From NCBI GenBank assembly GCA_016180965.1, contig JACPAF010000002.1, positions 82,529-146,528 on the forward strand: a DNA stretch of 64,000 nucleotides. The letters are read 5' to 3'. The stretch is from Candidatus Aenigmatarchaeota archaeon (lineage in GTDB: Archaea; Aenigmatarchaeota; Aenigmatarchaeia; JACPZZ01). Below are positions 5,772 through 50,105 of the stretch, one piece after another (positions within the stretch are counted from its first letter, which is position 1; each line of letters begins with the position of its first letter). The notes beneath the pieces are model-generated. The model saw nothing but the letters and a program-made list of their open reading frames with translations. It was not told the origin of the DNA and did not search any database. A program made the translations under genes and the position numbers.

Positions 5772-5816
5772 GTAAATATTTTTGTTAAATTAACAATCGA
5801 TTGTGGATGATAGTTT

Positions 5817-6620
5817 ATGTGGGGAGACAAATCGGGGGAAACAAAAAAAGAAACTAATTGGCTGGGAGAAACCAAAGAATCCCATTATGACAGCGGCGGT
5901 AGCAAAATAGGAGAGACGAGATTTTCTACTAATTGGCTGGGCGGGTCGAAACAAGAACACTATGATTCGTCTGGAAACAAGGTTGGAGAAACGCGAAAAG
6001 GAACGGATTGGTTGGGCGGGGATAGAGCAGATCATTACGATGCACGAGGCGACAAGATCGGCACGAGCCGGGATGGGGTTGATTTCTTGGGCCAACCCGT
6101 CCAGAGGCATTACGATGTGCAAGGCAGTCAGATTGGATCGACGAGGCGAACTACTGATTTGTTAGGCACATCAAAGAAGGTGCATGAAGGCGATTGGCTT
6201 AAAGCTCCTTTGTCCAATTATCCAGCTGAAAGTACGGGCGGAAGCGGAGGAGATAGACATGATACACCTGCAAGTGCACCGCAATCCAGTTATGGGAACC
6301 AACCCCAACAACGACTGGCGCAAGATGCAGCGAGGGAACGCTTTGGGAAGGAATGGGACAAGAGCTTCGATCGTTCGATGAGGGAAATAGATGAAAAATT
6401 TGCACGAATCCAAGCAGAGTATCGTAAAAGCGAACTGGAACAAAAAAGAAAGCGGGACGAGGAGGATAGGCGCGTTCGAGTGGAATTGGACAAAGCTATT
6501 GAGCGTATTAGGATTGCCAATGTTGAGTATGAACAACAGGAAAGGAGAGAATGGAACGAGGTGTTTGAGCGTTCTCGCAGAGCATCAGAAGAAGTGGAAC
6601 GGGTTTTATCAGGACTATAG
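5817..6620 (+). CDS. Repeat protein: about 4.5 tandem 25-aa 'WLGxxxxHYDxxGxKIGxTR' repeats plus a charged coiled-coil C-terminus
   Basis: 75-nt periodic repeats run from about 5853 to 6200 (TNWLGETKESHYDSGGSKIGETRFS, then TNWLGGSKQEHYDSSGNKVGETRKG, and so on). The C-terminal third is rich in E, R and K. Confidence 0.6.
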   Translation: MWGDKSGETKKETNWLGETKESHYDSGGSKIGETRFSTNWLGGSKQEHYDSSGNKVGETRKGTDWLGGDRADHYDARGDKIGTSRDGVDFLGQPVQRHYDVQGSQIGSTRRTTDLLGTSKKVHEGDWLKAPLSNYPAESTGGSGGDRHDTPASAPQSSYGNQPQQRLAQDAARERFGKEWDKSFDRSMREIDEKFARIQAEYRKSELEQKRKRDEEDRRVRVELDKAIERIRIANVEYEQQERREWNEVFERSRRASEEVERVLSGL

Positions 6621-47286: not shown

Positions 47287-48054
47287 ATGGACGAAACGCA
47301 CAGTTACGACATAGTGGGAAATATAGCAATAATCGAAGTTCCGGAAGGAGCCGATGAAAAACTCATGGCAAATGAAATAATGAAGAATAAAAACATAATT
47401 ACCGTTGTAAAAAAACTTTCCGCAAGAGAAGGCGTTTTTAGAACCAGGCAACTGGAAGTTGTCGCAGGCAAACAAAACTTGGAAACCATTCATACTGAAC
47501 ACGGAATGAAATACAAGCTCGACGTCGGTAAGGTTTATTTCTCACCGCGCGAGGGCGAGGAGAGGCAAAAAATAGCTGATAAGATACGAAATGATGAAAC
47601 TGTGCTTGTAATGTTCGCAGGCATAGGCGCGTATGCCATAGCGATAACAAAGAAAAAACCGCAGTCAAAAGTTTATGCCGTCGAAATAAACAGCGACGCG
47701 TACGAATACATGCGGACTAACATAAGGTTGAACAGAGTGGACGCGTTAGTTTATCCGTTAAAAGGCGACGTTCGCATTGTGTGCAAAGGCATGGACGGCA
47801 AATTTGACCGCGTTGTGATGCCTTATCCGGCTGGCGCGCATGAATTTTTGGATATTGCGATTGGGTGTTTGAAGAAAAACGGATTTATACACTTTTACAC
47901 AATCAGCAAAGAAGGCGAAGAAGACGCCGGAAAGGAACTTCTTGGGAAGGAAGCAAATAAGCTCGGACGTAAAACGGTTAACGTGGAATCACGCAAAGTT
48001 TTACCGTATGCGCCGAGGATGTGGAAACGCTGCGTAGAGGCTCAGATAGTTTGA
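47287..48054 (+). CDS. trm5: tRNA (guanine37-N1)-methyltransferase Trm5/Taw-like (Met-10+ family)
   Basis: 'YDIVGNIAIIE', 'VYFSPR', 'VLVMFAGIGAYAI', 'VYAVEINSDA' and 'DRVVMPYP'. Start set at 'MDETHSY'. Confidence 0.88.
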   Translation: MDETHSYDIVGNIAIIEVPEGADEKLMANEIMKNKNIITVVKKLSAREGVFRTRQLEVVAGKQNLETIHTEHGMKYKLDVGKVYFSPREGEERQKIADKIRNDETVLVMFAGIGAYAIAITKKKPQSKVYAVEINSDAYEYMRTNIRLNRVDALVYPLKGDVRIVCKGMDGKFDRVVMPYPAGAHEFLDIAIGCLKKNGFIHFYTISKEGEEDAGKELLGKEANKLGRKTVNVESRKVLPYAPRMWKRCVEAQIV

Positions 48055-48081: not shown

Positions 48082-48672
48082 ATGGAACAGACCAAAATAG
48101 ACAAAATAAAAGCCCATTGGTATTCGCATCCGTCATGGAATGCTGAAAGACCATTGTTAAAGGAATTTCTCGCGGAACCTCCACTGATGCTTGCGCGGGC
48201 GGTGTTTGCCATGTCTGGGGACAGGCTTGAACTGCCTTATTGGAGATTCCAAAACGATGCGAAGATGCACGCATTGTATATGGCAGGGCGCGACGTTTAC
48301 GATCCGGCTGATGTAGCGGCTGATTATGCATCTGCGGTTCTGGAAGTTTCAAAGCGGATAATAACCAACGAAGGCCAATTCGACAGGGTGATGCAGATTT
48401 CGGTCGATAAATTACTAAATTCGAACCTGCCAGTGGTTACTGCGGAGGTCCTTGCCAGGAGGTTCGGCCTTGACGGCAAACCGAGGACCTATGCGGAGAC
48501 GGGTGCCGAATTAAATTTCAATGCAGGCGAGATATCGAGATTGGAATCCGACGGTTTAAAATTGTTAAGACATCCTTCACGTTCAGGGGTCATCGGTTCG
48601 TATCTGCAGGAAAGACGCAGGGTGTTCTTAAAATATCTGTATGAATCAGGTATAATGACGGAAGACCTATAG
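48082..48672 (+). CDS. Protein with a bacterial primary-sigma-factor (RpoD) region-4-like C-terminal segment
   Basis: 'TAEVLARRFGLDGKPRTYAETGAELNFNAGEISRLESDGLKLLRHPSRSGVIGSYLQE' parallels E. coli RpoD '...[59 protein letters not shown]'. Confidence 0.7.
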   Translation: MEQTKIDKIKAHWYSHPSWNAERPLLKEFLAEPPLMLARAVFAMSGDRLELPYWRFQNDAKMHALYMAGRDVYDPADVAADYASAVLEVSKRIITNEGQFDRVMQISVDKLLNSNLPVVTAEVLARRFGLDGKPRTYAETGAELNFNAGEISRLESDGLKLLRHPSRSGVIGSYLQERRRVFLKYLYESGIMTEDL

Positions 48673-48689
48673 GACTATTAATAAGAAAC

Positions 48690-48826
48690 GCGGGGGTAGC
48701 CAAGCCCGGTTAAAGGCAAACCGAAACGGATTGATACTAAATACAATCCGTTTCTGTCCACAACAGGCGCAGGCTTCAGGAGCCTGTCTCCTAGCGAGTT
48801 CGCCGGTTCAAATCCGGCCTCCCGCA
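48690..48826 (+). tRNA. tRNA-Leu (anticodon CAG) with a roughly 51-nt non-canonical intron between the D arm and the anticodon stem
   Basis: Acceptor stem GCGGGGG/CTCCCGC. D arm GCC-AAGCCCGGTTAAA-GGC. The insert is about 48718-48768. Anticodon stem CAGGC-TT-CAG-GA-GCCTG. Long variable arm. T arm GCCGG-TTCAAAT-CCGGC. Discriminator A. Confidence 0.85.
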
Positions 48827-48828
48827 TT

Positions 48829-49266
48829 TTCGTTGAAGCTGCTTTTAGGCAAATAAAAGGCGTTAAGTCCACAAGAGTGGGTTATGTTGGCGGCTCGATG
48901 AAAAATCCTAGTTACGAGGATGTTTGCACGGATAAAACCGGACATGCGGAAGCGGTTGAAGTTACCTTTGATCCGAAAAAAATTAATTACGAAAAATTGT
49001 TGCAAGTTTTTTGGGATAACCACAATCCGACTCAATTAAACAGACAAGGACCTGATCTGGGGACGCAATACAGGTCCGTGATTTTTTACCATAACGATAA
49101 GCAGAAAGAAGCTGCGATAAAATCCAAGGAAAAATTACAAAAGTCGGATAAATACAAGGACAGGAAGATTGTTACTGAAGTTGTTCATATTGAGGCGTTC
49201 TACGAAGCTGAAAAATACCACCAACAATATTTGGAGAAGCGCGGGCTTTCCACCTGTCACATCTAA
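48829..49266 (+). pseudogene. msrA: Peptide-methionine (S)-S-oxide reductase MsrA, 5'-truncated; catalytic GCFW(G/C) motif absent
   Basis: Homology ('VEAAFRQIKGVKSTRVGYVGG...GHAEAVEVTFDP...GTQYRSVIFY') starts 3-6 nt after the tRNA-Leu 3' end. The only in-frame start is GTG 48877. Confidence 0.7.
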
Positions 49267-50026: not shown

Positions 50027-50073
50027 TCAATGCACCTCCTTTGTCTAAACTGAAGCAGATCGTTATGTAAACT

Positions 50074-50105
50074 GAATCATACCGTATAGTATACAGGTAT
50101 GATTC
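50074..50105. promoter_or_regulatory. Near-perfect palindrome of about 15 bp in a divergent intergenic region
   Basis: GAATCATACCGTATA-g-TATACAGGTATGATTC with a 1-nt bulge. It is preceded by the direct repeat TAAACTGAA x2. Confidence 0.4.

Follow-up and report, generated by a model that had tools for sequence, protein, structure and literature searches.

Background

In the bacterial holoenzyme, region 4 of the sigma factor contacts the flap-tip helix of the beta subunit of RNA polymerase (RNAP), and the interface includes L901, I905 and F906 (PMC10216364). Crystallographers fuse region 4 and the flap-tip helix to mimic this contact (PMC10245118), and sigma4-linker-beta-flap-tip chimeras of this type include 7KUF, 8CWT, 3T72 and 6IDO. 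Short phage proteins with region 4 as the sole recognizable domain also exist (BFVD A0A6J5S254; PHROG 351). It is already known that DPANN genomes can contain a piece of bacterial sigma: sigma-70-like genes have been reported as fam00359, mainly in Woesearchaeota, in a study that ruled out mis-binning and assigned them no clear function (Castelle et al. 2021, PMC8204110). The initiation factors TBP, TFB and TFE are also present in DPANN (PMC8204110). The gene described here is located on a 64,000-nucleotide stretch of a Candidatus Aenigmatarchaeota archaeon assembly (GCA_016180965.1, contig JACPAF010000002.1), referred to as the window. It encodes a 196-amino-acid protein that has a region 4 of the bacterial type and, closer to its N-terminus, a flap-tip-like motif.

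The explanation that we lean toward, with only modest confidence, is that the protein is a self-clamped region 4. It would be a single-chain module that joins a group-1-type sigma region 4 (amino acids ~100-176) to an N-terminal flap-tip-like helix (amino acids 33-41). The internal helix would fill the hydrophobic groove of region 4, and extra helices on both sides would complete one compact globule. Region 4 would thus be folded and stable without bacterial RNAP, as in the sigma4-beta-tip chimeras. A bacterial gene for a self-clamped region 4 would have reached the ancestor of a narrow Aenigmarchaeota clade in a single transfer and then been inherited vertically at one locus, staying between trm5/guaA and tRNA-Leu. 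Its role in the clade would be that of an RNAP-independent helix-turn-helix protein, acting as a DNA-binding regulator or a protein adaptor. In the subclade of the window the protein may have acquired a new specificity, or it may make protein contacts via the invariant RHPSRS surface and the C-terminal helix.

Region 4 identity and predicted structure

48082 to 48672, forward strand: coding sequence of the 196-amino-acid sigma-region-4 protein with an ATG start, from the list of open reading frames (ORFs) and identical to HYT71_02660
48379 to 48609, forward strand: sigma-70 region 4 (4.1, helix-turn-helix 4.2 and C-terminal helix), amino acids 100-176, from Pfam, NCBIfam, phmmer and Foldseek
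48565 to 48585, forward strand: LRHPSRS, amino acids 162-168, from the 15-protein alignment
48601 to 48669, forward strand: C-terminal helix YLQERRRVFLKYLYESGIMTEDL, amino acids 174-196, which runs past the end of bacterial sigma factors

The protein is 100% identical to a metagenome-assembled genome (MAG) entry on a 280,827-bp contig, "MAG: hypothetical protein HYT71_02660" of Candidatus Aenigmarchaeota archaeon. Sigma70_r4 (PF04545) is its sole Pfam domain. The match covers amino acids 121-164 with a score of 29.7 bits (E=4.7e-7) against a curated gathering cut-off of 24.1 bits, and 11 of the 15 aligned relatives also match this domain. All NCBIfam matches are to RpoD/SigA-type models and are local to the extreme C-termini of these models (amino acids ~100-176 of the protein). 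The scores of 24-29 bits do not reach the NCBIfam RpoD/SigA/MzaA equivalog cut-offs of 354-800 bits. A phmmer search of the PDB sequences resulted in 56 matches, every one of them a sigma factor. The top match is region 4 of T. maritima sigma-A (1tty, E=9e-8, amino acids 103-175), and its alignment is in register at RRFG-LDGKPRT, LE, LRHPSRS and SYL. The first-pass annotation, which was made from the letters alone, had expected a significant Sigma70_r4 profile match and a likeness to the C-terminus of group-1 sigma factors down to the LRHPSRS tail, and both are found.

The same annotation recognized no region 2 or 3 upstream, and this is also the result of the profile searches. Pfam and NCBIfam gave no match to region 2 (PF04542) or region 3 in the 196-amino-acid protein, and no match at all outside of amino acids ~91-177. 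Since regions 2 and 3 are absent and archaeal initiation uses TBP, TFB and TFE, the protein is not a sigma factor. The gene is an inherited one of bacterial origin, the label of a working sigma factor is wrong, and the ORF at 48082-48672 should not carry the name "sigma factor" in annotation.

Region 4 of group-1 sigma factors, such as those of T. maritima sigma-A (1TTY) and M. tuberculosis SigA, has the same fold as the window protein, with homology over ~75 amino acids. The window protein keeps RFG(L/I)D, the helix-turn-helix, LE, LRHPSRS, (Y/F)L and the residues of the hydrophobic groove. Within LRHPSRS, the 15 aligned proteins all share R163, P165, R167 and S168, and at least 90% of them have H164 and S166. 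Unlike group-1 sigma factors, the window protein is without regions 1-3, occurs in an archaeon that presumably has no bacterial RNAP and has its -35-reading residues replaced. Its C-terminal helix is ~20 amino acids longer and is kept family-wide as protein (YLExRRWEF..YL), and it has a family-specific N-terminal domain of ~100 amino acids. The fam00359 proteins are similar in that they are also sigma-family sequences of bacterial origin in DPANN genomes (PMC8204110). By their description they differ, being sigma-70 factors, whereas the family of the window protein combines region 4 with a flap-tip-like motif and occurs in Aenigmarchaeota only. This region-4-only, fast-evolving and Aenigmarchaeota-restricted family is annotated merely as hypothetical.

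AlphaFold on a 36-sequence alignment predicts a single compact all-helical fold with a predicted local distance difference test (pLDDT) score of 95.3 and a predicted template modeling (pTM) score of 0.88; a 3-sequence alignment gave only a pLDDT of 50. The helices in the model are at 2-11, 17-30, 33-41, 56-69, 75-95, 99-113, 119-127, 137-144, 148-162 and 165-189, with a hairpin at 50-55. Foldseek confirmed the region-4 fold, with best matches of ~75-96 aligned columns at a root-mean-square deviation of 2-3 A, and the top ranks in the PDB are sigmaA4-beta-tip chimeras. Structural neighbors in the PDB and BFVD were found for the region-4 part only. The phage Sigma70_r4-only proteins resemble the window protein in being short with region 4 as the one recognizable domain. 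They differ in that the region-4 part alone superposes (TM-score 0.3 relative to the query) and in having no recognizable N-terminal domain.

Flap-tip-like motif

48178 to 48216, forward strand: beta flap-tip-like motif PPLMLARAVFAMS, amino acids 33-45, from the alignment and motif hidden Markov models (HMMs), with an AlphaFold helix at amino acids 33-41
48232 to 48276, forward strand: most conserved family-specific motif LPYWRFQNDAKMHAL (LPYW.F..DA[KR]RHA), amino acids 51-65, with a predicted short beta-hairpin that leads into the first part of a helix

All members of the archaeal family have the consensus PPxRLxxA(I/V)FG, located ~125 residues N-terminal to RHPSRS. The window version is PPLMLARAVFA (amino acids 33-43), in which L36, V41 and F42 are kept, and F42 occurs in every one of the 15 aligned proteins. 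L901, I905 and F906 correspond in the family to L, to I or V and to an F that never varies. The archaeal PPxRLxxAIFG is, in the alignment of 15 sequences, in register with TPELRLRSAIFGER / TPELRLRSAIFGE of the bacterial relatives described below. HMMs made from the motif columns were compared to E. coli RpoB (1342 amino acids, translated from NC_000913) and match only at 896-908. The score on RpoB is 4.7 bits for the HMM of all 15 sequences and 9.9 bits (E=3e-5) for that of the four non-archaeal sequences.

The bacterial relatives also connect this motif to the beta flap. When the motif segment of one of them (P0160) was compared to 177,635 PDB sequences, the top match was 3woe, a fragment of the Thermus beta flap (PTPEERLLRSIFGEK). 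Another (P0175) has 21 PDB matches to its N-terminal 40 residues, and 21 of 21 are the beta flap tip or engineered sigma4-beta-tip chimeras. The top BLASTP alignment of P0160 spans 73% of the window protein. Taken alone, the motif evidence for the archaeal proteins is weak to moderate. A single chain holds both interface partners in several architectures that are unrelated to each other, and either partner can come first; this is strong evidence for a motif that would serve to bind region 4.

The engineered chimeras are a close described counterpart, as they also have region 4 and a flap-tip-type helix in one polypeptide (PMC10245118). In the archaeal proteins the helix is N-terminal to region 4 and ~55 residues of extra helices lie between, compared to a short artificial linker in the chimeras. 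The archaeal motif is also diverged (PPLMLARAVFA in the window), and docking of the helix at 33-41 into the region-4 groove would be the archaeal equivalent of the contact that the chimeras were made to mimic. The first-pass annotation had proposed, as one option, a horizontally acquired and domesticated helix-turn-helix protein. The parts of that proposal that stand are the acquisition and retention of the gene, the absence of regions 2 and 3 and the diverged recognition helix; the N-terminal flap-tip-like motif was missed, as were the bacterial relatives of like architecture, the fast evolution of the gene and the earlier report of DPANN sigma-70-like genes (PMC8204110).

Bacterial relatives and the probable donor

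The profile search also found non-archaeal proteins with a flap-tip-like motif and a canonical region 4. The motifs are:

P0160, P0166 and P0171: TPELRLRSAIFGER
P0175: PPEERLLSAIFGER
P0165: IKLLSAIFGT
P0159: VKLMSAIFGT
P0168: EELLLAAIFGR
P0183: EVLLLSVIFGR
P0012: KLFMAVFGSE

Together with P0035 and P0186 (the latter paired with P0012), these relatives correspond to loci L005-L008, L013 and L015-L018. Their architectures range from minimal proteins of 95-129 amino acids to a tandem-repeat protein of 400 amino acids (P0012) and fusions to a domain like the C-terminal domain of the RNAP alpha subunit (alpha-CTD; P0160 and P0166). In most of them the motif is ahead of region 4. P0035 is a complete 95-amino-acid ORF with the reversed order, in which region 4 is followed by an eight-residue linker and the flap-tip helix. 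An end-to-end match to the engineered chimera 7kuf_B covers the last 35 residues of P0035 (E=1.6e-5).

At least part of this set consists of genes on bacterial chromosomes, since P0183 adjoins cysS and dnaX in three contigs and P0160 and P0166 carry the alpha-CTD-like domain. The genes around P0171, P0160 and P0159 mostly gave no Pfam match. No literature report was found of natural single-chain proteins made of a flap-tip helix and region 4, and the bacterial set with a near-canonical flap-tip helix and region 4 in one chain is apparently undescribed. A search of the IMG/VR viral contigs with the bacterial N-terminal alignment as query found no relatives, and a metagenome scan with the same alignment resulted in only two loci, one of which was already known. 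The bacterial proteins share with the archaeal family the N-terminal L..[AS][IV]FG motif, 72-125 amino acids upstream of RHPSRS. They differ from it by a recognition helix of canonical sequence (TRERIRQIE) and by a flap-tip sequence close to the canonical one, and some are extended at the C-terminus, for instance by the alpha-CTD-like domain. Neither the LPYW/DAKRHA motif nor the YLExRRWEF tail of the archaeal family is present in the bacterial proteins.

Proteins of this flap-tip-plus-region-4 kind, instead of rpoD itself, are the probable donors of the archaeal gene. Scores of region 4 alone point both ways: the archaeal domains score 0-10 bits higher on an HMM made from the bacterial flap-tip-plus-region-4 proteins, for which the comparison set is biased, and their closest pairwise matches are ordinary sigma C-termini.

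Several results weigh against a self-clamped region 4 that came from such donors. When region 4 alone was scored, the archaeal domains were not shown to be nearer to the flap-tip-plus-region-4 proteins than to ordinary sigma factors. The window motif has A where the consensus has G. The archaeal-only motif HMM (11 sequences) scores -1.5 bits on RpoB, yet it is placed at RAIFGE 903-908. A PDB-wide search with a 31-column motif profile did not retrieve RpoB and gave two chance matches, because the motif is too short for database-wide significance. The alignment of archaeal and P0160-type N-terminal regions with hhalign speaks for a relation by its P-value of 9.3e-5 over 48 columns, but its probability is just 59%. 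Two further points fit with weak constraint on the gene. The number of nonsynonymous substitutions per site (dN) between the window and the homologous locus L001 is 0.43-0.52 for the gene compared to 0.05-0.15 for its neighbors, and in L004 the codon for the invariant Trp19 is replaced by an in-frame TGA (5851-5853).

Should the architecture be confirmed, the protein would be a natural counterpart of the fusion of flap-tip helix and region 4 that structural biologists have made. It would also mean that part of the machinery for bacterial initiation can turn autonomous and survive in a cell with a wholly different transcription system. Proteins of this kind are small (~95-200 amino acids) and probably very stable, and could serve as a region-4 scaffold for studying how -35 recognition and the activator surface evolve when freed from RNAP. 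For DPANN biology the family offers a concrete case for the role of horizontally acquired bacterial regulators in symbionts.

Recognition helix

48517 to 48567, forward strand: degenerate recognition helix FNAGEISRLESDGLKLL, amino acids 146-162, from the comparison with E. coli sigma-70

Residues R584/E585/R586/R588/K593 of sigma-70 are A/G/E/S/D in the window protein. All five positions that contact the -35 element in E. coli are thus replaced, as the earlier description of an altered DNA-recognition helix had implied, and the net charge of the helix-turn-helix is -2 compared to +3 in sigma-70. The loss of -35-reading residues is confined to the subclade of the window. Basal members of the family retain R586, R588 and mostly R584 and E585; therefore, they probably still bind DNA via the helix-turn-helix. 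The subclade (P0001-P0003) is variable at the recognition helix (AGEISRLE, LVEISTLE and AKQANTLE) but shows no change in RHPSRS, LPYW/DAKxHA, the flap-tip-like motif or the C-terminal helix. Since the subclade replaced the DNA-reading residues and kept these motifs and the C-terminal helix, an altered DNA specificity or a protein-binding role is favored for the window protein.

The flap-tip helix belongs to the beta subunit of bacteria, and the archaeal RNAP works with TBP and TFB; both points argue against a genuine, sigma-like initiation factor that acts with the archaeal RNAP. Such a factor would also have to function without region 2 or 3 and without the -35-reading residues. The presence of region 4 and the report of sigma-70-like genes in DPANN (PMC8204110) are the points in its favor, and it is highly improbable.

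The retained residues could also be understood as those of an inter-domain decoy or effector against the transcription of a bacterial host or competitor, which would, for example, titrate activators or anti-sigma factors or occupy -35 elements. This is very unlikely. The group-1 signature RHPSRS is kept, as is some of the basic surface at 593-603 (K160, R163 and R167), basal members retain the sigma-like R586 and R588, and DPANN archaea are symbionts. However, no signal peptide or secretion context was seen, the -35 contacts of the window protein are lost and nothing ties the window MAG to a bacterial partner. The internal flap-tip-like helix would also obstruct binding to the bacterial beta flap. 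To our knowledge, the known hosts of DPANN are archaea, which further counts against a bacterial target.

Evolutionary rate

The gene evolves at 5-10 times the rate of its neighbors. Between the window and L001 (GCA_964476825.1), protein identity is 88% for Trm5, 92% for the methionine aminopeptidase (MAP), 90% for MsrA, 91% for MsrB and 74% for DUF192, compared to 49% for the sigma-region-4 protein. Between the window and L004/L011 the values are 76-79% for Trm5 and 31-35% for the sigma-region-4 protein. A blastn comparison to L001 found no nucleotide similarity over 48133-48600, whereas the surrounding background is 74-84% identical; a forced nucleotide alignment of the gene body has ~50% identity. 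The number of synonymous substitutions per site (dS) is saturated and the NG86 method fails, so that diversifying selection, relaxed constraint and the exchange of an old allele are not separable by this measure. In the five most divergent archaeal members ~35 positions are invariant, including F42, LP.W, DA..HA, DY, RFG, LE, RHPSRS, YL and RR..F.

The L004 copy (5791-6393) was called as a gene of 137 amino acids, and its frame extends upstream to an ATG at 5791. The in-frame TGA lies in this extension and could be a nonsense mutation, a sequencing error or a TGA read as Trp. The stop codon of the L004 gene itself is TGA.

A fast rate of this kind may be the result of decay. The gene could be a decaying or nearly neutral leftover of a transfer, with the ORF persisting only due to the close kinship of the genomes and the overlap of its 3' end with the promoter or leader of the essential tRNA-Leu gene. 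The high dN and low identity relative to the neighbors, the lost -35-reading residues, the TGA at Trp19 in L004 and a 79-nt stretch at the 3' end that is conserved as DNA all fit with this explanation. We consider it quite doubtful, since the ORF is intact at 185-199 amino acids in ~10 genomes whose members have diverged to ~30% identity. The ~35 invariant positions are distributed over the full length, AlphaFold predicts a compact fold with high confidence and the tail is conserved as protein in distant members with differing DNA. A remnant of foreign DNA, another option of the first-pass annotation, is unlikely for similar reasons: the ORF is intact, has ~35 invariant positions and is kept in ~11 genomes.

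The rate may instead reflect an arms race. In this case the gene would encode a conflict protein directed at viruses, mobile elements or a host, with surface diversification on a scaffold of region 4 and flap tip, for example to neutralize a factor of an invader or partner. The gene is by far the fastest-evolving of a conserved neighborhood, with nucleotide similarity lacking over 48133-48600 as above, and its distribution is narrow, within one clade of DPANN symbionts. The surface of region 4 is a classic target of phage and regulatory proteins, and the PDB matches include complexes with G1 ORF67, Wbl and lambda cI. However, searches with PHROGs and PADLOC resulted in generic region-4-level matches only (phrog_351 and MzaA) and no link to a defense system or phage. 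The neighbors are housekeeping genes with no defense island, and with dS saturated positive selection cannot be shown. A conflict protein is therefore unlikely.

A broader version of the self-clamped explanation is also conceivable and is improbable as a whole. The sigma4/beta-flap-tip interface would have been captured repeatedly as one polypeptide, in both orders, to give an RNAP-free "-35 reader". One of these would have crossed into DPANN and become a fast-diversifying regulator or conflict protein, possibly acting against bacterial-type promoters or sigma-binding factors of partners or mobile elements.

Distribution and gene neighborhood

47290 to 48054, forward strand: trm5 (TRM5/TYW2 methyltransferase), a conserved neighbor 27 nt upstream of the gene

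A HMMER profile search of 1.84 billion representative proteins resulted in 4,543 matches. Of these, the members of the family are the query cluster, the full-length P0004 at 133 bits and a fragment, P0006, with no others. The remaining matches are via region 4 alone and are mostly bacterial sigma C-termini, with a few flap-tip-plus-region-4 proteins (P0012 and P0035). A profile search of a 5.8-billion-sequence set found 11 members of 185-199 amino acids, and all of the named ones are from Candidatus Aenigmarchaeota. A GTDB scan with one genome per species found three loci, two of them in named Aenigmatarchaeota groundwater MAGs and the third in an "uncultured archaeon". No further ORF containing region 4 is present in the 64-kb window. 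The family is confined to one narrow Aenigmarchaeota clade and is vertically inherited at one locus.

The locus is found in six contigs that were assembled independently and come from NCBI MAGs, Logan and JGI (the window, L001, L002, L004, L011 and L012). The gene order in L001 is map-DUF192-trm5-gene-tRNA-Leu-msrA-msrB. In L004 and L011 it is map-(HD)-DUF192-trm5-guaA-gene-tRNA-Leu, and in L002 and L012 it is gene-tRNA-Leu. An intron-bearing tRNA-Leu follows the gene in 6 of the 6 loci. The G+C fraction of the gene is 0.47-0.48 within a local range of 0.38-0.51, with no compositional break.

An assembly chimera or bacterial contamination of the MAG had been left as an option by the earlier note, and the bacterial affinity of the domain is all that speaks for it. 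It is excluded for practical purposes because the homologues share the locus in independently assembled contigs. The same locus occurs in five further assemblies besides the window, with orthologous archaeal genes on both sides, a tRNA with an archaeal-type intron and an ordinary G+C content.

In all cases the gene shares its strand with the gene immediately 5' of it, which is trm5 at a distance of 27 nt or guaA (10 nt in L011), and tRNA-Leu(CAG) is just 3' of it. It may be co-transcribed with trm5. A tRNA-Leu(CAG) normally bears m1G37, which is made by Trm5. The linkage of trm5, the gene and tRNA-Leu may be functional or may simply be due to the close kinship of the genomes.

The 3' end of the gene and tRNA-Leu

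48601 to 48679, no strand assigned: conserved DNA stretch of 79 nt with 95% identity to L001, comprising the end of the coding sequence and nucleotides past the stop
48690 to 48826, forward strand: tRNA-Leu(CAG) with an insertion of ~49 nt (non-canonical intron, roughly 48718-48766), 43.8 bits when the region was searched alone

Within 48601-48679 the window and L001 agree at 87% of third codon positions, compared to ~60% in neighboring genes and ~31% in the gene body. A promoter or leader of tRNA-Leu is probably located inside the coding sequence. In this stretch TTAAAATAT at 48627-48635 is similar to a TATA box and GTATAATG at 48649-48656 is also a candidate part of the promoter. Since the 3' end is conserved at the DNA level and the tRNA and its insertion are 100% identical, the invariance of the tail in the subclade is partly a DNA-level constraint. 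The invariance of the C-terminal tail in the subclade was therefore dropped as a purely protein-level signal, as it coincides with the conservation of the DNA. The tail is also kept as protein in distant members with different DNA (YLEQRRWEFLRYL and YLEARRWEFMAHL).

The stop codon of the gene ends at 48672 and tRNA-Leu starts at 48690, which agrees with the 17 nt given in the first-pass annotation. The insertion is between the D-arm and the anticodon stem and holds an 11-bp hairpin. It is included in the 100% identity of the tRNA between the window and L001, and the hairpin has compensatory changes in L002, L011 and L012. The L011 tRNA-Leu has an apparent second insertion in the T-arm. ARAGORN found no tRNA in the 64-kb window, and a whole-window Rfam run at gathering thresholds was also without tRNA-Leu. 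The orthologues of tRNA-Leu(CAG) are at the following positions:

L001: 6080-6216
L002: from 1164
L004: from 6529
L011: from 6651
L012: from 2288

Other features of the window

48832 to 49266, forward strand: msrA, truncated at the 5' end, aligning from residue 20 of the 163-amino-acid L001 orthologue with 90% identity
37763 to 41563: CDC48/AAA+ ATPase of 1266 amino acids with a LAGLIDADG homing-endonuclease intein (Intein_splicing, amino acids 297-792)

The neighbors of the gene in the window include this CDC48 ATPase with its intein, HAD hydrolases, a type-2 methionine aminopeptidase, DUF192, Trm5, MsrA/MsrB and transketolase-like subunits. The truncated msrA beside the tRNA had been noted from the sequence, and the comparison to L001 bears this out, with the first 19 codons of the orthologue absent. 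The missing N-terminus would presumably contain the catalytic GCFWG region. The point of truncation directly adjoins the tRNA at its 3' end, which suggests a deletion of ~110 nt in the lineage of the window.

A short palindromic repeat with the core GAAGCATATCGATACAGTATACGATATGCTTC is recurrent in Aenigmarchaeota contigs. It occurs at:

window: 50067-50084
L001: 5963-6079
L004: 6571-6602
L011: 3051-3124 and 6563-6596
L012: 19-55

The repeat is present in L001 as a ~110-nt insertion between the gene and tRNA-Leu, and a related repeat sequence is at the intron position within the tRNA in L004. It looks like a small mobile element similar to a miniature inverted-repeat transposable element (MITE).

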